A DNA stretch of 64,000 nucleotides, taken from IMG/VR virus record IMGVR_UViG_3300022591_000004, positions 1 through 64,000 of that record; one strand, 5' to 3'. Below the pieces are notes generated by a model. That model saw only the letters and a list, made by a program, of their open reading frames with translations, ran no database searches and was not told the origin of the DNA. Of the stretch, positions 3,066 to 23,055 are shown piece by piece; positions within the stretch are counted from its first letter, which is position 1, and every line of letters starts with the position of its first letter. The translations under genes were made by a program, and so were the position numbers. This stretch comes from a virus.

Positions 3066-3617
3066 TTAACGTACATTGTTGACCCCTATCGGCGCCTCTG
3101 GCAACTCGTGCATGGGTCGCAGTTCTGTACGAGGAACATACCACGTGCTCTCGTTGTACTTCCACTCTGCTCTCTTGGCATCTTTTCCATACATCCATCC
3201 AAGGGCGGTATAGGGAGCACCCTTCCATTCAGGGCCGATTCTCTTCGTTTTACGTCCTAGACCACCTGCCATCAGTACATAGATGAGCTCATCGCTATCT
3301 CTGCTGGTGATGCGAAGGCCCCGTACTGCATCGGAAAATACTGGGAACTGTGGTGGAAAGGCATATCTCACCTCTCCAAAGCCTGGAATATCTAACTCTG
3401 TCTTGAAAGTATTCTCAGAGGGCACGAAATCTTTTAGGCCCAGCATTCTAGCGAAGGCAATCTCACTACCCGCGCAAATCATATGTTGGAAGGCTTCCCA
3501 TACATCGCCTTCGGAATAATTGACATTAGCCTCTGGACGCGATAAAAAGCGTAGCTGTCTCTCCCAGCCTACCCGTGCGGCTACTGCTTCCTCTTCTACA
3601 CTCAAAAAATAATCCAC
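3066..3617 (-). CDS. hypothetical phage protein
   Basis: 183-aa ORF, GTG start with GGGG RBS. Confidence 0.7.
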   Translation of the reverse strand: MDYFLSVEEEAVAARVGWERQLRFLSRPEANVNYSEGDVWEAFQHMICAGSEIAFARMLGLKDFVPSENTFKTELDIPGFGEVRYAFPPQFPVFSDAVRGLRITSRDSDELIYVLMAGGLGRKTKRIGPEWKGAPYTALGWMYGKDAKRAEWKYNESTWYVPRTELRPMHELPEAPIGVNNVR

Positions 3618-3745
3618 GTTTCCCCTTCTTCCTGTGCGATAGTTGCATAATCCTTTAACTCTTGCAGCTTCTCACTCTTCTTCTCCGTCACCTGTTCAGC
3701 AACAGAAATCATTGCTCGTAGGGCGGTAATTGATAAAGACTCCAT
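3602..3745 (-). CDS. small hypothetical protein (47 aa), probably leaderless
   Basis: Manually translated MESLSITALRAMISVAEQ...; TACTGT -10 lies 6 nt before the ATG. Confidence 0.55.
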   Translation of the reverse strand: MESLSITALRAMISVAEQVTEKKSEKLQELKDYATIAQEEGETWIIF

Positions 3746-3838
3746 ACCTGCACAGTATCACAGGGCGCCGAATTTCATAAACTCGGCTACTACTTCTGCA
3801 CAATGAGCGATACCTGTTACTGACACCTGGCCTCAATC

Positions 3839-3963
3839 CTGAGAATTGCCTGAATTAACCCTGGGGGGTGTCTGTGTGTGTAGATAGCCTGTGGATAACT
3901 CGTTGTGGACAACACGGTGTGGATATGTCGGTGCTTGACACTTATTCAGCCTAGTATTACTGT
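3839..3963 (+). promoter_or_regulatory. Composite module 0: CTGAG tandem, three DnaA-box-like sites, sigma70 promoter
   Basis: CTGAGA 3839 and CTGAAT 3850; TGTGGATAA 3890, TGTGGACAA 3904, TGTGGATAT 3918; TTGACA 3935-3940, 17 nt, TACTGT 3958-3963. Confidence 0.8.
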
Positions 3964-4007
3964 GCTCTTAGTGGACAACACGGTTCACTAATTAGACGGG
4001 GGACACA

Positions 4008-4265
4008 ATGGCAAAGGTAGACATGCCAGGCGTTCGTAGCTTGCAGAAGCTATGGACAACTATGGTCGAGCAAGGACACGACCCTATCACAGCGGGTCAG
4101 TGGATTAACGGCGCATTTGGCGCAGATTACGAAATCTGCGACTTCTGCAACAAGTACGGCGCGGATGTTTACGAGTACGACATGGGCTCGACCGCAATTT
4201 GCTCGACCTGCGAGGACAACCAACCAACAATCAACGACCTAGTGAAAATGGAGGTGGAGGCGTGA
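4008..4265 (+). CDS. hypothetical early protein with CxxC...CxxC zinc ribbon
   Basis: 85-aa ORF directly after promoter; GGGGG RBS. Confidence 0.7.
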   Translation: MAKVDMPGVRSLQKLWTTMVEQGHDPITAGQWINGAFGADYEICDFCNKYGADVYEYDMGSTAICSTCEDNQPTINDLVKMEVEA

Positions 4266-4438
4266 GCGCCTTCACCTTCCCACGCACCGACAAGACCTAC
4301 AAGGTTACTGTCGAATTCAGCTTCTACGCCGAGGACGAAACCGAGGCGCAGGAAATAATCAAGTACCAGATTCGACGCCCAATCAACACCGACCTAGTTT
4401 CGGTGGACGATGTGACGATGGTCGAGGTTCCCGAGTGA
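4262..4438 (+). CDS. hypothetical early protein
   Basis: GTGA overlap with previous stop; GGAGG RBS. Confidence 0.65.
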   Translation: MSAFTFPRTDKTYKVTVEFSFYAEDETEAQEIIKYQIRRPINTDLVSVDDVTMVEVPE

Positions 4439-4580
4439 AGCTAGCTCTAGTGTTGGGGGCGGTTCTCACCGCCCTCATCACACACCTGTTCTTCACCCCT
4501 CACTATGGAAACTGTCAGCCAACTGACATCGGCAAGACCTGTACACTCACTCATTACACTCTCAAGGAAGGCAAATAATC

Positions 4581-4742
4581 ATGGACCCACGATTTACAAT
4601 TGCAGATACTTATAAGAAATTGCAAAAGGCGGGAATTTCTTATAAGGAGTTCGAGGCAGAACTAAACAACTGCGGCGGACCCGAGAACGCTTTTAGAATC
4701 TGCTGGAAGTACCAAGACATGGCAGAGGATTCCTGCGCATGA
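4581..4742 (+). CDS. hypothetical early protein (53 aa)
   Basis: Manually translated MDPRFTIADTYKKLQ...; AAGGAAGG RBS. Confidence 0.6.
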   Translation: MDPRFTIADTYKKLQKAGISYKEFEAELNNCGGPENAFRICWKYQDMAEDSCA

Positions 4743-4974
4743 TGACCGATTTAGAGTGGATTCTCTTTCAGCTCAATGGAGTTCTGACGGGAAGCCTGAC
4801 CACCGAGCAGAAGCTCGCCAAGCTCACCGAGCTAGTGGCTAATTGCTCAGAGGAGATAGGGCTAAGCGTATGATTATCCTAGTAGCGATAGCAGTAGGAG
4901 TCTTCGGGGGGTGGCTAGGCTCACTAGCCCCCTCAGTAGAGGATGAAGCACAGATTTAGCCCCCGCTAAAACGA

Positions 4975-5010
4975 CAAGCCCGAGAGCCGTTCCTCTCGGG
5001 TTTTGTTGTT
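4975..5010 (+). terminator. Rho-independent terminator
   Basis: CCCGAGAG-CCGTTC-CTCTCGGG followed by TTTTGTTGTTT. Confidence 0.85.
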
Positions 5011-5012
5011 TC

Positions 5013-5227
5013 TTGAGACTTTCCTGAGAATTACCTGAGCGCAAAAGTTTGTGTTGGTGGTTGATATGTGTGGTGTATGTGCCTATGCCAGCCAGCGGCT
5101 TGTCTCGCTACGCTCGCCAACACAAACATTCGGGCAATTCGGACATTTCAGGCTGTGGATAAGTCGCTGTGTATAACTAGCTGTGGAGAGAGAAGGTACT
5201 TGCATTCTCTACTAATGAGAGTAATGT
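5013..5227 (+). promoter_or_regulatory. Composite module A: 11-bp tandem, IR element, 9-bp tandem, DnaA boxes, promoter
   Basis: TTGAG/CTGAG/CTGAG at 5013/5024/5035; IR 5047-5127; CATTCGGGC-AATTCGGAC-ATTTCAGGC 5127-5153; boxes 5154, 5168, 5182; TTGCAT 5200, 16 nt, TAATGT 5222. Confidence 0.85.
5047..5127. repeat. Inverted-repeat-bounded element A (81 bp)
   Basis: GTTTGTGTTGG 5047-5057 ... CCAACACAAAC 5117-5127, a perfect 11-bp IR. Confidence 0.9.
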
Positions 5228-5274
5228 TCCTCTTGTCGCTAAACGGCGAATTTTAATACAGAAAGGCAAGGCTC

Positions 5275-6267
5275 ATGGCTCACGATTTAGAACAGGGTAA
5301 CGGTCAGACCGCATTTGCACTACGCGGAGAACCTGCATGGCACAATCTAGGAACCGTATTCGACAAGGATGCGGACATCACAACGAAGCAAATGTTAGAC
5401 CTCGCACATCTCTCCAATTGGAATGTTCGTCTAGAGCCCGTTTCCTATCCTGAGGGCTACACCACTGTCAAGGACGCTTATTCGGTTGTCCGTAATCACC
5501 CATTCAACGGCAATCCCGATGTTCTGTCGGTCGTAGGCGAGCGCTACAAGGTTGTCCAAAATGAGGAACTCTTCTCATTCGGTGACGGCATGCTAGACGG
5601 TGGCGGGGCATGGGAATCGGCGGGTTCTATCAAGGACGGTCGTGTCGTGTTCGGCTCAATCGTTATTCCGCGCGAATTTATCCTCGACCCTAGCGGAATT
5701 GCCGATAAGACAGTTTCCTATCTGCTTGTCCATACATCACATGACGGCTCGACCGCTCTACAGGCGAATGTAACGCCAATTCGCGTGGTCTGCCAGAATA
5801 CCCTCAATATCGCGCTAGGCTCTAGCAAGCAATCTTTCAAGGTTCGCCACACTCAGACAATCGGCGGACGCATGGAAGAGGCACGTCGTGTACTAGGCTT
5901 AACATTCTCCTACATGGACGATTTCCAGAAGCTGGCGCAAAATCTATTCGAGAGCGAGATTACTAATGCCCAATTCGACAAGCTTGTTGCAGGGCTCTAT
6001 CCAAAGCCTGATGAAGCTAGCAAAATGGCAACCACTAAGTACACCGACAAGCTCGACACCATCCACAATCTCTATAAAGTTGCAGCAACGCAAGACGGAA
6101 TTCGTGGCACGAAATGGGGAGCGCTCAACGCGCTCACAGAACGAGTTGATTATTTCCGTACAAGCCGAACAGGAGACAATAAGTCTCTCATGGCTTCTGC
6201 CAGCGGATTCGACGTCCAGACCAACGCTGAAAAGAACAAGATTCTAAAAGCGGTCATGGCACTGTAA
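5275..6267 (+). CDS. DUF932 / phage-plasmid TIGR03299-like protein
   Basis: EPAWHNLG, YKVVQNEELF, ESAGSIKDGRVVF, SHDGS...TPIRVVCQNTL, HT and GTKWGALNALTE motifs. Confidence 0.9.
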   Translation: MAHDLEQGNGQTAFALRGEPAWHNLGTVFDKDADITTKQMLDLAHLSNWNVRLEPVSYPEGYTTVKDAYSVVRNHPFNGNPDVLSVVGERYKVVQNEELFSFGDGMLDGGGAWESAGSIKDGRVVFGSIVIPREFILDPSGIADKTVSYLLVHTSHDGSTALQANVTPIRVVCQNTLNIALGSSKQSFKVRHTQTIGGRMEEARRVLGLTFSYMDDFQKLAQNLFESEITNAQFDKLVAGLYPKPDEASKMATTKYTDKLDTIHNLYKVAATQDGIRGTKWGALNALTERVDYFRTSRTGDNKSLMASASGFDVQTNAEKNKILKAVMAL

Positions 6268-6276
6268 CAAGATAAG

Positions 6277-6303
6277 TAGAGGGGCGGGGAAACCCGCCTC
6301 TCA
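6277..6303 (+). terminator. GC hairpin, terminator-like
   Basis: AGAGGGGCGGG-AAA-CCCGCCTCTC right after the DUF932 stop; no U-tract. Confidence 0.6.
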
Positions 6304-6518
6304 CCTAATTCTCAGACACGCCCGAGCGCGTTGCAGAAAAGTTTGTGTTGGGTGGCTGGGTGGGGTGGTGGTTGTTTCCTTTAATACTTTCGTAGCTCGC
6401 TTACTCGCTTCGACACAAACATTCGCAAAACGGACATTTCGGGCTGTGGATAACCTGGTGTGGATAAAGATATACACAGGGCGAGAGTTATTGACTTCTA
6501 CGATAACAAGAGTATTGT
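6299..6518 (+). promoter_or_regulatory. Composite module B
   Basis: TCTCAC 6299 and TCTCAG 6310; IR 6341-6420; AAAACGGAC-ATTTCGGGC 6427-6444; TGTGGATAA 6445 and 6459, ATATACACA 6470; TTGACT 6491, 16 nt, TATTGT 6513. Confidence 0.85.
6341..6420. repeat. Inverted-repeat-bounded element B (80 bp)
   Basis: GTTTGTGTTGG ... TCGACACAAAC. Confidence 0.85.
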
Positions 6519-6556
6519 CCTCTCTGTAAGGCAAATAACTACTACAGAAGGAGAGA

Positions 6557-6724
6557 ATGATGATTCAGTCACCATTCACGTCACAGGAAGTCCGTAAGCT
6601 GTTCGTCCTCGTCTGCGCTTCACCAGATATTGAGATGAAGGAAGCCATCGAGCTTCTCAACAAGTTGGATTCTTTGCATATCGCCACCAAGGGCGTCGAA
6701 TATTATGAAAGTCAGGGGGTGTGA
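6557..6724 (+). CDS. hypothetical early protein (55 aa)
   Basis: Manually translated MMIQSPFTSQEVRKLF...; AAGGAG RBS directly after promoter B. Confidence 0.65.
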   Translation: MMIQSPFTSQEVRKLFVLVCASPDIEMKEAIELLNKLDSLHIATKGVEYYESQGV

Positions 6725-7007
6725 GGTGAAAACACTGGCGGATTTTAAGCGCGCACTTACTGTAGGCACTGAAGTAGAACTACTTAGCTTAGCAAAGAAC
6801 GTCAAGGGTGGGCGCTTGCAGGTTGGTATGGTGCGCCGAGTCACCAAGGCAGATACCACTGGCGTGTACTTGCAAACCGAAGGACTCGAAGGTCGAGGTT
6901 CATTCTTAGGTTGGGATAAGGCTAAAGATTGGGTGTTTGACGGCGATAGGGCTATTAATATCGTCTGGGGCTATTCATACCGAGTATTGAATAAAGAGGG
7001 CAGCTAA
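6705..7007 (+). CDS. hypothetical early protein (probable start GTG 6726)
   Basis: ORF followed by a hairpin. Confidence 0.7.
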   Translation: MKVRGCEVKTLADFKRALTVGTEVELLSLAKNVKGGRLQVGMVRRVTKADTTGVYLQTEGLEGRGSFLGWDKAKDWVFDGDRAINIVWGYSYRVLNKEGS

Positions 7008-7019
7008 TACTTAGCTAAG

Positions 7020-7042
7020 TTGAGGGGCGAAAGCCCCTCAGC
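7020..7042 (+). terminator. GAAA-tetraloop hairpin, terminator-like
   Basis: TGAGGGGC-GAAA-GCCCCTCA. Confidence 0.65.
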
Positions 7043-7239
7043 CAATTCTCAGGAAAATGTTTGTGTTGACCGAGCGAGCAGCGAGGGCAATCAGTGGCTG
7101 GCATGGGCATATACCTGCATATATCAACCGACACAAACAATTCGGACATTTCAGACAAATTGGGCTGTGGATAACTCGTTGGGGATAAAGTTATACACAA
7201 GGGGAGAGTATTTGACATATCTATAGAAAGCGATAGTCT
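7036..7239 (+). promoter_or_regulatory. Composite module C
   Basis: CCTCAG 7036 and TCTCAG 7047; IR 7059-7138; AATTCGGAC-ATTTCAGAC-AAATTGGGC 7139-7165; TGTGGATAA 7166, TGGGGATAA 7180, TTATACACA 7191; TTGACA 7212, 16 nt, TAGTCT 7234. Confidence 0.85.
7059..7138. repeat. Inverted-repeat-bounded element C (80 bp); interior is an inverted homolog of element A
   Basis: GTTTGTGTTGA ... CCGACACAAAC; interior CGAGCGAGCAGCGAG...TGGCTGGCATGGGCATATAC...ATATCAACC aligns to the reverse complement of the A interior. Confidence 0.88.
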
Positions 7240-7286
7240 TCTCTTTGTAAGGCAAACAACCACTCTAGAAAGAGAGTAAAGGCAAA

Positions 7287-7535
7287 ATGGCAAAACTTCT
7301 ACCACGCTTTGAGGTAAAGGTTACCGCAGAGTATCACTACGAGTCCGAGGACTTTGATACCGAAGGCAACCTTACCCGCGAAACTGTCGAGAATGACGCA
7401 AGTATCGCTTTCTACGACAATGTTAATAATGCCGAAATCTACTCAACCGAGATTACCAAGTCTTGGTTCGAGTGCGAGGATTGCGGCGAAGATGATGTCG
7501 AAGAAGACCACGAGTGCGAAAACGAGGCTGAGTAA
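7287..7535 (+). CDS. highly acidic hypothetical early protein
   Basis: 82 aa, D/E-rich, C-terminal CEDC...HEC. Confidence 0.7.
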   Translation: MAKLLPRFEVKVTAEYHYESEDFDTEGNLTRETVENDASIAFYDNVNNAEIYSTEITKSWFECEDCGEDDVEEDHECENEAE

Positions 7536-7768
7536 TGACACGCAAGGACTACCAGCTTATTGCTAAGACTATTTCAGACTTCCGCTACGAGGGTACGGAG
7601 TTCCGTGACCCTGTAATGATTGCCCTGATTGACCGTCTTGGGGCGCGTATTTGTGAGGCGTTGGAAAACGAAAATCCGCGCTTTAACGCCGATAAATTTC
7701 TAGAGGCTATGGAATACGGAAAACGCCCTACCACCGATGAAATCGTCATGCGAGCGTGGGGGTCGTAA
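7535..7768 (+). CDS. conserved phage hypothetical protein (MTRKDY...NPRFxxxKF)
   Basis: MTRKDYQLIA and ENPRFNADKFLEA motif. Confidence 0.75.
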   Translation: MTRKDYQLIAKTISDFRYEGTEFRDPVMIALIDRLGARICEALENENPRFNADKFLEAMEYGKRPTTDEIVMRAWGS

Positions 7769-7817
7769 TGAAAACCACCGAAGACTACTACAAGGCTTAT
7801 TACAAGGGAGAAATAGC

Positions 7818-8018
7818 GTGAAAAAAGGCATTAAAGAAGTCCTTCAGATTGCTCTAGAAGAAGCTGACGACTATAGCTACGTCCTAACACAGGAACAAGC
7901 CGCAGAACATCGGGGCGCAAAATACGCTCTATACGAGGTTTATCAGTATCTCTTTGATGAGTCATACCAGACCGAGCGTGACAAGCGCCTAGAGGCTAAA
8001 CAGAGTTCTCCCGCGTAA
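7818..8018 (+). CDS. hypothetical early protein
   Basis: GTG start with GGGAG RBS; followed by terminator. Confidence 0.6.
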   Translation: MKKGIKEVLQIALEEADDYSYVLTQEQAAEHRGAKYALYEVYQYLFDESYQTERDKRLEAKQSSPA

Positions 8019-8050
8019 GTTATTTGCCTTTCTGACGCGGTTGAGATGGG

Positions 8051-8090
8051 ACATAGAGCGGAGACTACCCTTCGCTCTTTGTTCATTTTA
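8051..8090 (+). terminator. Rho-independent terminator
   Basis: AGAGCGGAG-ACTACC-CTTCGCTCT followed by TTGTTCATTTT. Confidence 0.65.
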
Positions 8091-8118
8091 GTAGAAAATT
8101 CGCGCCTAAGCGCCAAAA

Positions 8119-8218
8119 GTTTGTGTTGGTCACTCCTTGATATGGTCATATATGTGCATAATGTGCTGTGCTGGCTATCACACGTGACAAAACCCACCCA
8201 CCCGCTACCAACACAAAC
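8119..8218. repeat. Inverted-repeat-bounded element D (100 bp)
   Basis: GTTTGTGTTGG 8119-8129 ... CCAACACAAAC 8208-8218, perfect IR. Confidence 0.9.
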
Positions 8219-8237
8219 ATTGCCAGCCTTGTCAAAT

Positions 8238-8280
8238 CTGAGAGTTAGCTGAGAGAGTTATCCACAGAGAGTTATCCACA
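8238..8280. promoter_or_regulatory. CTGAGA tandem and two perfect DnaA boxes in reverse orientation
   Basis: CTGAGA 8238/8249; TTATCCACA 8258 and 8272. Confidence 0.85.
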
Positions 8281-8335
8281 GGCTGCGAGCGCCCAAGTGG
8301 GCAAATATCGACAAATTGACATGTAAATAAAGAGA

Positions 8336-8351
8336 TGTTTCACGTGAAACG
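8336..8351. promoter_or_regulatory. parS-like centromere site
   Basis: TGTTTCACGTGAAACG; 15/16 match to the bacterial parS consensus TGTTTCACGTGAAACA, with a perfect 14-bp palindrome. Confidence 0.8.
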
Positions 8352-8441
8352 CTGATTCGGCTACTATTTAGCTGAGTAGAGAGAGTAAGCGGTGGTAAGA
8401 CCAGATTGCTGGGGGTATCCCGAGTGTTCCTATCGCATAGC

Positions 8442-8642
8442 CTGAGAAGAAGCTGAGTGAGAGCTGAGAGAGACTATCCCTATCCCCTTCCCTATCCCTA
8501 TACCTATATAAAGAAAGGCTCAGAATCGCTTAGGCGCGAAATTTTTATAGGGGGTTGTGGATAACTGCTTGTGGATAAACACCTGTGGATAACTATTTAT
8601 TTATCGTGGTGTGTTGCATTATCCCTTTTTATCCCCTAGTGT
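8442..8642 (+). promoter_or_regulatory. Composite module E: CTGAG x3, three perfect DnaA boxes, promoter
   Basis: CTGAG 8442/8453/8464; TGTGGATAA 8556/8570/8584; TTGCAT 8614, 17 nt, TAGTGT 8637. Confidence 0.85.
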
Positions 8643-8729
8643 CCTGTCTATCAGGTTATGAGTGATAACAAGTAAGCGATTAGGTAGCCCTAGTCCACCT
8701 GATACACCTACCACAACGAAAGGCAACAC

Positions 8730-9023
8730 ATGAACCTCACACAAAAGCAAAATGTCGCTAAAAGCCTGAAAAACGCTAAGGGTATCGCGTGGGATACCTG
8801 CCATAAGATTTATATTCTTATGGACGATAATCAAATGGAACTCATGCGCGGTTATGGCTATGACCCATTGGTTAGCTCAGTAGATACTACCCCTGACGAG
8901 ATGTTGGCTCTTATCGAGGATTGGTTCGACAATTCGTGCGACCTACGTTTCATTGACTCTGTAACTACTGACACCGAGAATCCTAACGCGGGATTTCTTA
9001 CTGTTGTAGGGCAGGATTTCTAA
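8730..9023 (+). CDS. hypothetical early protein
   Basis: 97 aa; GAAAGG RBS; WDTCHKIY and SCDLRFI motifs. Confidence 0.75.
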   Translation: MNLTQKQNVAKSLKNAKGIAWDTCHKIYILMDDNQMELMRGYGYDPLVSSVDTTPDEMLALIEDWFDNSCDLRFIDSVTTDTENPNAGFLTVVGQDF

Positions 9024-9355
9024 TGAGCTATATAAAGAGCCTATTAGAGGATATTAACGCCGAGTGCGAGAACGAAAATATCCCTGTCAAGGCGTTTATT
9101 GCTTATCTAGATAATGACCATATCCCGCTAGGGGAGTGGCAAGACCATATTCCTAACTTCCATGAGGCTTACGTAGGTAAGTACGATTCGGTCGCGGATT
9201 TTGCTTCTGATATGGCTGAGCGCTTGGGCGTATTTACTGAGGCTAGTAGTTATGACTCTTTCTTGGTTCGATACTTTGATTTCGAGGCTTGGGGGCGCGA
9301 TTTATTACAGGGTGATTACTGGGAGATTGACGGTTACTACTTTGGGAGTTACTAA
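9023..9355 (+). CDS. ardA: ArdA-like antirestriction protein (C-terminal domains only)
   Basis: Acidic; FHEAYVGKYDS..DFA...LVRYFDFEAWGRDL...YF matches the ArdA C-terminal signature. Confidence 0.75.
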   Translation: MSYIKSLLEDINAECENENIPVKAFIAYLDNDHIPLGEWQDHIPNFHEAYVGKYDSVADFASDMAERLGVFTEASSYDSFLVRYFDFEAWGRDLLQGDYWEIDGYYFGSY

Positions 9356-9356
9356 G

Positions 9357-9542
9357 ATGAATACACGTCACCACCACGATACCGTCAAGATTCTGTATGA
9401 CGAGTCGGTGCTATGCCTACCGTGTTGGAACGGTCAAGAGGGCGCGATTATCAGCACCGAAGAACGTTGCCCCGAGTGTAGTGGGGCGGATATTCAGGAC
9501 AAGATTACCGAGTGCGATAGTTGCGGAGAGGTTATTAACTAA
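9357..9542 (+). CDS. small Cys-rich zinc-finger protein
   Basis: CLPC, CPEC, CDSC. Confidence 0.6.
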   Translation: MNTRHHHDTVKILYDESVLCLPCWNGQEGAIISTEERCPECSGADIQDKITECDSCGEVIN

Positions 9543-9543
9543 G

Positions 9544-9813
9544 ATGAATAAATGTTACGAATGCGGTTGGTCGGATTCTGATATGGGATTCTTCACCGAA
9601 GAAGCGGGCAAACTGTATTGCTCACTTCACCGCTCGCTATCCATGCAAGAGCTTTCCGAGCTGACCCATGAGACTCAGGTCGAGCGCTTTGGGTTCTGCA
9701 CCTGTGAGGAACAAGAGAACTTTCCTTACTCAGATTGTCCTAGACCCGAGCCCGAAGAAAAAAACGACTGGTCACTCTACGGAGTGCAGAAAGGATACGA
9801 AGACCATGCTTAA
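9544..9813 (+). CDS. hypothetical Cys-containing acidic protein
   Basis: MNKCYECG...FCTCEEQENFPYSDC. Confidence 0.6.
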   Translation: MNKCYECGWSDSDMGFFTEEAGKLYCSLHRSLSMQELSELTHETQVERFGFCTCEEQENFPYSDCPRPEPEEKNDWSLYGVQKGYEDHA

Positions 9814-10060
9814 AGTAAGCTCAGTAAAGCACGAAGACACCGCTTGGGACAAGTTTATTAACCTTACTTATGAAGGTAATGAGTACCGCGCTATTCTCCA
9901 TTGGGATAAGTGGGAAGGGTACGAACTGGTGAGCTTTACAAACCCTAAGGGTGAATGGATTGACACGCCTGAGTGGGCTGTTGATTGGGAAGAACACAAC
10001 GAGAAGAGCCTTAACTATCTATTAGATGAGTTGAGCGACGAAAAACTAAAGGAGAACTAA
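9806..10060 (+). CDS. hypothetical early protein
   Basis: MLKVSSVKHEDTAW...; Trp-rich and acidic. Confidence 0.65.
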   Translation: MLKVSSVKHEDTAWDKFINLTYEGNEYRAILHWDKWEGYELVSFTNPKGEWIDTPEWAVDWEEHNEKSLNYLLDELSDEKLKEN

Positions 10061-21362: not shown

Positions 21363-21718
21363 TAGACGGCTCCTCCGAGGTCGTTGCGGCTTGATGATTC
21401 TGTGGTATTTGGGGTTTGGCTAAAGTCTGATTCTACACGTTGCTGAGCACGTCCAGGGAGTTGAACAATGTCTTCAAGGGTCAATTCTGTATCTGTGTAT
21501 CCATAGCGCTCAGGAAATAGTACAACTTGGGGTAGTGGAGGGCGCACATATTCTTGTAATTCGGCGCCTGTCATTAAGTTAGCTGCTAATGATTGGCTCA
21601 GTAGACGCTCTTGATTAGAGGCAAAGGGGCCGATATAAGCTTGGGGTGGGTAGGCAGCCTCTGGTGGTGCTTGCCACGGTTTACGGGAGTAAACACCGTC
21701 TGACATTCTTCCTGTCAT
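21362..21718 (-). CDS. hypothetical protein
   Basis: 118 aa; TAATG coupling. Confidence 0.7.
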   Translation of the reverse strand: MTGRMSDGVYSRKPWQAPPEAAYPPQAYIGPFASNQERLLSQSLAANLMTGAELQEYVRPPLPQVVLFPERYGYTDTELTLEDIVQLPGRAQQRVESDFSQTPNTTESSSRNDLGGAV

Positions 21719-22116
21719 TAAAATCCCCCTGAACTTGGAATTTTTCGCTGGTGAGTTTCAAATATTTCTACGGGGACATCAGCTTCTGGGTCGTGAGCCA
21801 GCTGAGACGCCAACCTATGGTTACCGTTAACTAAATTAAGACCCTTGTTATTTGGTCCCGTAAAAATGCGTAATGGTTCTTTAATTCCGTTTTTTTCAAT
21901 ATCATCATGGAAGCTATTTAGTCTTCCAGATGTAGCGTCAGATTGATTTTGAGTTAACTTTCTAGAAAGCATCTCACGTTCAGAAGATTTTTGTTTTTCA
22001 GACTTTGGTTTACCAGGAACACTGGGCTCACTGTGCACGGCCTCATCTAAATTTATATGCTCAGCAATATCTTTAGCCTTCATATACTGCTTAAAAGGAG
22101 ATTCACTTGGAATCAT
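21718..22116 (-). CDS. ParB/Sulfiredoxin N-terminal-domain protein
   Basis: DIEKNGIKEPLRI...LVNGNHRLA...VPV motif. Confidence 0.7.
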   Translation of the reverse strand: MIPSESPFKQYMKAKDIAEHINLDEAVHSEPSVPGKPKSEKQKSSEREMLSRKLTQNQSDATSGRLNSFHDDIEKNGIKEPLRIFTGPNNKGLNLVNGNHRLASQLAHDPEADVPVEIFETHQRKIPSSGGF

Positions 22117-22117
22117 A

Positions 22118-22657
22118 TTACTTCCAGTTCGGTGATAGTGAGCTCAAACGCTTTGCGCGGTTGAGATTAACGCCCATAGGTGAATCGCTCTTCGCTGCTG
22201 GACCCGCCTTACCGTCGTTAGGCAAGTGTGGTGCTGGAGCTAGGTATTGGTTATCTGTATTGCGCTTAGTTCTAATAACGTTACCGTCACGAACGCCAGC
22301 CATTTGACGGCGAATTCCACGCTCTGGACCTAAGTCAGCTGGGTAGTAATAACCAGCAGCGTCGATGCGCTCGCCTTTGTGCACACCACGTTGATAACCG
22401 CGTTGTGTGATGCGAACCTTGAGTGAGTCTAAGACGTTTTCTGATGTGGAACCTGGACGACCGCGGTCATCACGACGTGTACGAATGGTCCCAAGATAGC
22501 CTTCAGGATACTCCGCAGAAGGCTGACGACCTACGCCTAAACGTAAGAAGTCAAGTTCACTCCTGGCGACTGGGACGCCGCCTCCGCCGTAGCTTGTATT
22601 TGTACCATACATACCTGCGGCACCTAGATTTTGAACGTTTTGATGCGGACCTGGCAT
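22118..22657 (-). CDS. hypothetical Gly/Arg-rich protein
   Basis: 179-aa ORF. Confidence 0.7.
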   Translation of the reverse strand: MPGPHQNVQNLGAAGMYGTNTSYGGGGVPVARSELDFLRLGVGRQPSAEYPEGYLGTIRTRRDDRGRPGSTSENVLDSLKVRITQRGYQRGVHKGERIDAAGYYYPADLGPERGIRRQMAGVRDGNVIRTKRNTDNQYLAPAPHLPNDGKAGPAAKSDSPMGVNLNRAKRLSSLSPNWK

Positions 22658-23055
22658 TAGATGTCCACCCGCTTTCTACGCTCAGCTGTTCTTATAGCGT
22701 GACAGTTAGCGCAAACAACTTCGCACTTTGCTATCTCTAACCATATAGATTCTACGCTCCTATTACCGATTTCTTCACCTATATTAAAAAGCTTTTTTGT
22801 TCCTGGTAAATGGTCGAACTCAAGAGCAGCTGGGTGTTTGTTAAACCCGCAATCGGCGCATCCTTTTTCTAACTGATACGCATGTACTTTTGCCAGTTTT
22901 CTTTCTATGTTTGGTCGCGTGTACTTAACGTACAAGCACCGATTGCACATAGCTTGTCTAGTACCACTTTGCCGACCTTTAGCCCATCGCATCTTAAACT
23001 TAGTTTCAGGAAACGACTGCTTGCAGGATGTACAGGTTTTTAGAGTATCCATCAT
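22657..23055 (-). CDS. HNH endonuclease
   Basis: CADCG...LEFDH...CEVVCANCH. Confidence 0.85.
   Translation of the reverse strand: MMDTLKTCTSCKQSFPETKFKMRWAKGRQSGTRQAMCNRCLYVKYTRPNIERKLAKVHAYQLEKGCADCGFNKHPAALEFDHLPGTKKLFNIGEEIGNRSVESIWLEIAKCEVVCANCHAIRTAERRKRVDI

Follow-up and report, generated by a model that had tools for sequence, protein, structure and literature searches.

Organization of the parS-bearing intergenic region

The DNA analysed here, referred to as the window, is the first 64 kb of the complete phage record IMGVR_UViG_3300022591_000004 (G000), a genome of 95,668 bp with a 98-bp terminal overlap. Between gene 7737–8018 and gene 8730–9023 lies a non-coding stretch (8019–8729) that contains a parS palindrome. 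An earlier, sequence-only reading of the window had described this as a gene-free stretch of roughly 700 bp, and the description is upheld: there is no credible gene within it, and the two short overlapping ORFs that do occur simply run across a terminator and an inverted-repeat element. The left-hand gene has no relatives in IMG/VR, and the right-hand gene is an early gene on the plus strand with no assigned function, which was used as the anchor for retrieving relatives. Palindromes and inverted repeats are given below without a strand.

An intrinsic-terminator-like hairpin with a T-run (8055–8088, plus strand) is located 3′ of gene 7737–8018. It is followed by a 21-nt inverted repeat, with arms at 8092–8112 and 8527–8547 that are 90% complementary, which brackets a 414-nt segment bearing parS. 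From left to right this segment contains an inverted-repeat boundary element (GTTTGTGTTGG...CCAACACAAAC; 8116–8221) with further copies near 5045, 6340, and 7058, then CTGAGAG repeats, two inverted DnaA boxes, parS, a GGCTACTAT...ACCAGAT element, and more CTGAG repeats together with CTATCCC repeats. Beyond the segment is the usual early-promoter module, consisting of three phased DnaA boxes, a promoter-like TTGCAT-17-TAGTGT sequence (8614–8642, plus strand), and gene 8730. This promoter was recognized by reading, having been missed by a simple promoter scan, and shares its layout with the other early promoters; no sigma-70-like promoter was detected by the scan at parS itself, and an Rfam search over 3600–9000 returned nothing. 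The parS-bearing segment resembles an inserted or inverted cassette, in that it is bracketed by the 21-nt repeat and its two DnaA boxes are oriented opposite to those of the other arrays.

The GGCTACTAT...ACCAGAT element (8359–8406, plus strand; spacing 40–41 nt) is conserved and occurs once per genome, in this non-coding region only. In the form GGCTACT(A/G)T, 31–32 nt, ACCAGAT it is also present at L033 4528–4576 and L063 6124–6171, and among the loci examined it is confined to parS-bearing lineages. A related form, GGCTACTGC...GCCAGAT, is found in the parS-less regions of G086 and L331, and L322 has GGCTACTGC without CCAGAT. Two copies of a palindromic motif, (A)TTGTCGACAAA(GC), also lie around the GGCTACT element in several relatives (G086 22590–22660, L063 6070–6115, L322, and L331 1080–1130). 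It is probably the site of some DNA-binding protein, and the window has one degenerate copy (ATCGACAAAT, 8307–8316).

A single chromosomal-type parS site

The palindrome TGTTTCACGTGAAACG at 8336–8351 corresponds to the parS consensus TGTTTCACGTGAAACA at 15 of 16 positions, as had been reported from the window, with the single mismatch at the outer 16th position and a perfect 14-bp core (GTTTCACGTGAAAC). It is a host-type site that falls within the definition of chromosomal parS (TGTTNCACGTGAAACA with at most 1–2 mismatches), and it is the sole consensus match at three or fewer mismatches both in the window and in the whole 95,668-bp genome. With the genome's own base composition, the chance expectation for sites with one mismatch or fewer is about 0.008 per genome; since this is so low, and since the core is kept in strain-level and distant relatives as described below, we do not regard the site as a chance match.

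A second, degenerate copy centred on CACGTG had been proposed at 8176–8190, and this part of the sequence-only reading does not hold. The sequence is an 11/16 match that is not conserved as parS, the CACGTG core being lost (CAAACGTG) in all three strain-level relatives, and in C. glutamicum no ParB is recruited to sites carrying at least three mismatches (PMC7083940). For these two reasons it was dismissed as a parS site.

Gene content and probable host

The structural genes of the phage include those for a tail sheath and baseplate proteins, and its replication and nucleotide genes code for DNA polymerase I, a DnaB-like helicase, a primase, a DnaC/IstB-like loader, a UvsX-like recombinase, and a class II ribonucleotide reductase (RNR); a DpdA-like transglycosylase is also encoded. 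A six-frame Pfam search of the complete genome found no tyrosine integrase and no serine recombinase, and no repressor or dormancy gene was identified in the gene set, which looks to be of the virulent type, with its own replisome, RNR, and anti-restriction genes. The early genes at 5275–6267 and 9023–9355 encode a DUF932 protein and an ArdA-like anti-restriction protein, a pair typical of the leading regions of conjugative plasmids. DUF932 was considered as a marker of the early region and rejected, as other relatives lack it.

The major capsid protein is 72–74% identical to those of the Streptomyces phages BRock, LuckySocke, Alone3, GiJojo, and pSt2308, the endolysin has CHAP and PG_binding_1 domains, and the DNA datasets holding the phage sequence are viral and freshwater metagenomes. 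These three observations make a lake actinobacterium the likely host, and the capsid identity and endolysin domains lend support to the actinobacterial host guessed at previously. A PASTA domain is present in another phage protein, and no RNA dataset is among the sequencing runs listed for the phage sequence. The group is abundant, more than 599 IMG/VR contigs having the capsid gene at 89% identity or higher, and a blastn search with positions 7000–10000 gave no match among cultured phages. Searches for the host by way of the phage's DNA sites were diffuse: triple DnaA boxes with 14-bp phasing are found in seven genomes from several phyla (three of them Bifidobacterium), none of them related to this phage, and a 22-nt extended parS sequence common to G000 and the related phage genome G087 gave 44 scattered, uninformative matches (Planococcus, Streptomyces, Microbacteriaceae, and others).

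DnaA-box arrays at the early promoters

All five of the perfect DnaA boxes noted earlier near parS are real. Two of them (TTATCCACA, 14 bp apart; 8258–8280, plus strand, with starts at 8258 and 8272) are in the orientation opposite to all other arrays and vary among strains. The other three (8556–8592, minus strand, with starts at 8556, 8570, and 8584) have 14-bp phasing, lie directly upstream of the gene 8730 promoter, and are invariant among strains. Genome-wide there are 14 perfect boxes, compared with approximately 0.7 expected. Arrays of perfect or near-perfect boxes with 14-bp spacing occur between 3890 and 8592, one immediately 5′ of the −35 element of every rightward early promoter (3890/3904/3918, 5154/5168, 6445/6459, 7166/7180, and 8556/8570/8584). 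Metagenome contigs span the region, and a joint of 5148 to 8553, one side of which measures just 27 nt, was set aside as a probable repeat artefact.

The two arrays near parS face each other 275 nt apart, as might be seen in an oriC-like arrangement, yet the same arrays precede every early promoter. The AT-richest spot, at 8300–8335, is merely in the top 1–4% of the genome, and AT-richness was rejected as a pointer to an unwinding element because no spot is singled out by it. DnaA boxes and parS do not co-vary among the relatives: G063 has parS without a perfect box and G086 has boxes without parS. The early region of G063 has the reverse pattern to that of the window. Its genome contains seven perfect CRP/GlxR-like TGTGA-N6-TCACA palindromes, compared with 0.08 expected, and zero perfect DnaA boxes; six of the palindromes are in the early region (869–2567, L309), with three flanking parS at 2389. 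As G063 has CRP-like sites and G000 has DnaA boxes, the early regions appear to be wired with whichever host-protein sites suit, which suggests that lineages swap the host-protein sites that decorate them.

Conservation of parS among relatives

The sequence-only reading had proposed a check of conservation in related phage contigs, and the site is indeed kept in three strain-level relatives and three more distant lineages. The strain-level relatives are metagenome contigs (L356–L358) with approximately 90% nucleotide identity across the region and 98% protein identity in the homologue of gene 8730, and all three keep TGTTTCACGTGAAACG letter for letter. In the alignment of the four strains parS and GGCTACTAT together form a 50-nt invariant block (8334–8383, plus strand), and the 19 nt just upstream of it have seven substitutions. 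As the block runs on into the GGCTACTAT element in G000, some of the conservation among strains could be due to that element.

The distant lineages, represented by G087 (complete, 95,815 bp) and by the partial genomes G063/G062 and G032, have exactly one site each, as TGTTTCACGTGAAACG in G087, a perfect palindrome in G063/G062, and TGTTTCACGTGAAACC in G032. They share approximately 70% nucleotide identity with G000 over 20–33% of the genome, and their early regions, which are highly mosaic in these phages, are unalignable by blastn; between G000 and G087 just 22 nt around parS match within 1.5 kb on either side. No exact word shared by G000 and the three distant lineages is longer than the parS 15-mer. 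Two other 14-mers are common to all four genomes and both are coding, such that parS is the only non-coding word of at least 14 nt that they share. It is always located in one long early non-coding region together with GGCTACT(A/G)T, with the place and the order of motifs differing by lineage. The site is kept while its flanks diverge, a pattern of substitution that shows parS to be under selection.

The site is not universal in the group. The complete genome G086 has the homologous non-coding region without parS even at two mismatches, and the homologous regions of contigs L322 and L331 have no site at one mismatch or fewer, their best consensus matches having 4–6 mismatches. Four cultured BRock-like Streptomyces phages likewise have no site at one mismatch or fewer. 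Because it is absent from G086, L322, L331, and the cultured Streptomyces relatives, the parS site is, on genome content, accessory and dispensable. In the RNR tree G086 is sister to the parS-bearing G087 (100/100 support) with the remaining parS-bearing genomes across that split, so that parS is present on both sides of the deepest supported RNR split. The simplest reading of this distribution would be one loss, or else repeated gains, with phage mosaicism as a caveat.

Among 80 more distant phages with gene 8730 the site is seen only in the lineages named above, together with a variant, TGTTCCACGTGGAACA, in G075/G076. The variant is a perfect palindrome that at L076/L077 (7236–7251) is preceded by a promoter-like site and followed by the ribosome-binding site of a small gene, and it could be either a parS variant or an operator.

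Candidate readers of the site

Six-frame Pfam searches of the complete genome gave no match to ParB_N, HTH_ParB, or ParA (AAA_31), such that the lack of ParA and full-length ParB first noted for the window extends to the whole genome, and there is no parA and parB cassette beside parS as in a self-encoded ParABS system. In addition, none of the ORFs of G000 is shared by the parS-bearing relatives and missing from G086. With these domains absent from the phage and no phage gene tracking the site, the likeliest reader is a host protein, and host ParB is the most economical candidate predicted from the genomes. The identical 14-bp core is present in 190 of 301 sampled Actinomycetota genomes, usually in 1–3 copies, compared with 1 of 301 for a reversed control pattern; the sample includes one unpublished genome (G195), of which the tally is independent.

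The phage does encode one ParB-like protein, a 132-residue product of 21718–22116 (minus strand) that has an NGNHR motif and lacks an HTH. The sequence-only reading had assigned it the N-terminal domain of ParB alone. A ParB-like fold is consistent with a weak PHROG match (E 4.7e-4) and with its Atlas feature and structure neighbours, which are stand-alone ParB/sulfiredoxin-fold proteins, and the product is probably of this type; there is no match to it in Pfam and no sequence match in the PDB, and the protein is not linked to parS. Its gene is 13 kb from the site and has no homologue in G086, G087, G063, or G032. The absence from relatives, the lack of a PDB sequence match, and the lack of an HTH led us to reject it as a partner of parS.

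The proposal made from the window, that the phage DNA borrows host ParB, is thus retained in part: it is strengthened by conservation of the site and by the lack of a phage-encoded reader, and it loses the second site and any link to the ParB-N-like protein, and the site itself proves to be accessory. Also counting against it are that the site is single, that it has an outer-position mismatch, and that the gene set looks virulent and has yielded no repressor or dormancy gene. With these points weighed, the 16-bp palindrome is probably a functional cis-acting loading site for host chromosomal ParB, carried on a phage without partition genes.

Alternative explanations

Three other explanations for the palindrome can be set beside loading of host ParB in cis, the first two being its main rivals. 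In the first, parS would act in trans as a ParB sponge, with replicating phage copies outnumbering the one to three parS sites of the host, depriving the host origin of ParB together with SMC loading and ParA control, and disturbing host chromosome segregation or the cell cycle; any organisation of the phage DNA would be beside the point. Small actinobacterial genomes in the 301-genome sample mostly have 1–2 perfect sites, so most of the parS copies in the cell would belong to a replicating phage; the excess of perfect DnaA boxes fits a theme of engaging host cell-cycle proteins, and parS shifts in position within the non-coding region, as expected if its presence alone matters. However, each genome carries a single site and not an array, always within the same non-coding region. 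Loss of ParB is also non-lethal in the actinobacteria studied (giving approximately 20% anucleate cells in C. glutamicum; PMC7083940), so that the benefit within one lytic cycle is unclear, and phage phi29, the precedent for such sites, acts in cis as far as it is described in PMC2731898. We consider a sponge rather unlikely.

A second explanation is that the palindrome is not a ParB site at all and that its likeness to parS is convergent, the sequence being an operator for a phage protein or for a CACGTG-recognising host factor, or the promoter part of the GGCTACTAT element. In G000 GGCTACTAT begins 8 nt downstream of parS in the same invariant block, and a TACTAT hexamer follows the TTCACG of parS at a distance of 17 bp. 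Related non-coding regions contain other palindromes centred on CACGTG (e.g. TCGAACACGTGTTCGA in G063), and the TGTTCCACGTGGAACA variant at L076/L077 has an operator-like position in a 5′ leader. The spacing between parS and GGCTACTAT is not maintained, however, being 8, approximately 56, and approximately 210 nt across the lineages with a different order in G087, and the GGCTACT element is retained without parS in relatives. The promoter scan detected no sigma-70-like promoter at parS, there is no phage gene that co-occurs with it, and all four lineages keep the exact pan-bacterial parS core of 14–15 nt where drift would be expected of a phage pair evolving together. This explanation we regard as quite improbable.

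Finally, a neutral passenger, either a chance match or a functionless recombined scrap of host origin-proximal DNA awaiting loss, would account for the several relatives without the site and would not be out of place in mosaic early regions, but it is highly improbable given that a site expected 0.008 times per genome is carried by three further independent lineages, is exact amid scrambled flanks, is found on both sides of the deepest supported RNR split, and retains no host-like flank beyond approximately 6 nt.

Proposed role and relation to known systems

Returning to parS as a loading site for host ParB, we infer the binding of ParB, its spreading, and the payoff to the phage. After DNA entry, host ParB-CTP would recognise the site and close as a clamp, which would then slide over tens of kb of phage DNA and reach the early and replication regions. 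The phage genome would in this way gain the identity of a chromosome origin, on which SMC would be loaded and which ParA would position. One parS suffices in C. glutamicum, from which ParB extends across 32 kb and at which SMC is loaded (PMC7083940). By analogy with phi29, the likeliest payoff would be positioning of a non-integrating phage genome and its inheritance by daughter cells while lytic growth is stalled, in a carrier or dormant state, and a cis-acting role in positioning or inheritance of the unintegrated genome is favoured.

The sequence-only reading had treated this idea as new, and there is a published precedent in phi29. According to the account in PMC2731898, the virulent Bacillus phages phi29 and Nf have host-type parS sites bound by Spo0J/ParB; phi29 has five parS sites bound by host Spo0J together with Spo0A boxes at its early promoters (citing Meijer et al. 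2005), and with these sites the lytic cycle can be suppressed and the phage genome segregated into the prespore. Measured against that account, G000 is likewise a lytic-type phage that bears the parS of the host chromosome and has no parA, parB, or integrase of its own. It also has sites for a host master regulator at its early promoters, although these are for a different protein, DnaA boxes taking the place of Spo0A boxes, and as their counterpart the DnaA-box arrays would read the growth state of the host. The differences are also plain from the same source: phi29 has five sites and a 19-kb linear genome with a terminal protein, whereas G000 has one site in 96 kb. The host of phi29 is a spore-forming member of the Bacillota and its payoff is spore entrapment, whereas G000 probably infects a freshwater actinobacterium, possibly a non-sporulating one. 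The principle is therefore not new, and G000 is a well-supported new instance of it in an abundant group of lake actinophages. What distinguishes it from phi29 is the single site, the probably non-sporulating actinobacterial host, and DnaA boxes as the neighbours of parS.

A more ambitious possibility is that parS and the DnaA arrays together make up a maintenance and gating module composed solely of host-protein sites, in which DnaA would set early transcription and replication by growth state and host ParABS would segregate the unintegrated 96-kb genome. This would give a heritable carrier state in non-sporulating hosts without an integrase, a repressor cassette, or partition genes. We offer it tentatively and consider it unlikely.

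Plasmid prophages such as P1, N15, and the integrase-less cluster A mycobacteriophages have their own ParA and ParB and a private parS. G000 resembles them in having a centromere-like site on a non-integrating phage genome, but it lacks ParA and ParB of its own and carries the universal chromosomal sequence as its parS. There is also a likeness to the chromosomal parS/ParB-CTP/SMC system of C. glutamicum, the 16-bp site of which is identical apart from one outer position (PMC7083940). The C. glutamicum sites are intergenic and near DnaA-box-rich origin DNA (PMC7083940), and the G000 site is likewise in DnaA-box-rich intergenic DNA. Unlike that chromosome, which has a cluster of ten sites, G000 is viral, with one site and no cognate parAB on the replicon.

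If host ParB does load at the site, a very abundant group of freshwater actinophages would join the segregation machinery of its host by means of a 16-bp site alone. This would extend the phi29 strategy beyond spore-formers and would provide a simple, testable handle on pseudolysogeny and carrier states in slow-growing lake bacteria.

Orphan parS sites in other viral contigs

The exact 15-mer TGTTTCACGTGAAAC is present in more than 119 IMG/VR viral contigs (L087–L205), approximately 65% of which have the perfect 16-bp palindrome. At 88 single-site loci, TGTTTCACGTGAAAC is outside ORFs of at least 80 residues in 33, compared with a non-ORF share of the DNA of approximately 16%. Fifteen of 20 large IMG/VR contigs with the exact parS 15-mer, among them 6 of the 10 with a completeness of 90% or more, have no ParB domain (ParB_N), and from these surveys orphan parS looks to be widespread among viruses. 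One of the contigs, L158 (IMGVR_UViG_3300044695_006284), is a weakly related 98-kb sequence with 38% GC in which GGTTTCACGTGAAACA (3473–3488) is in intergenic DNA and, as judged by eye, apparently right after a tRNA-like sequence.
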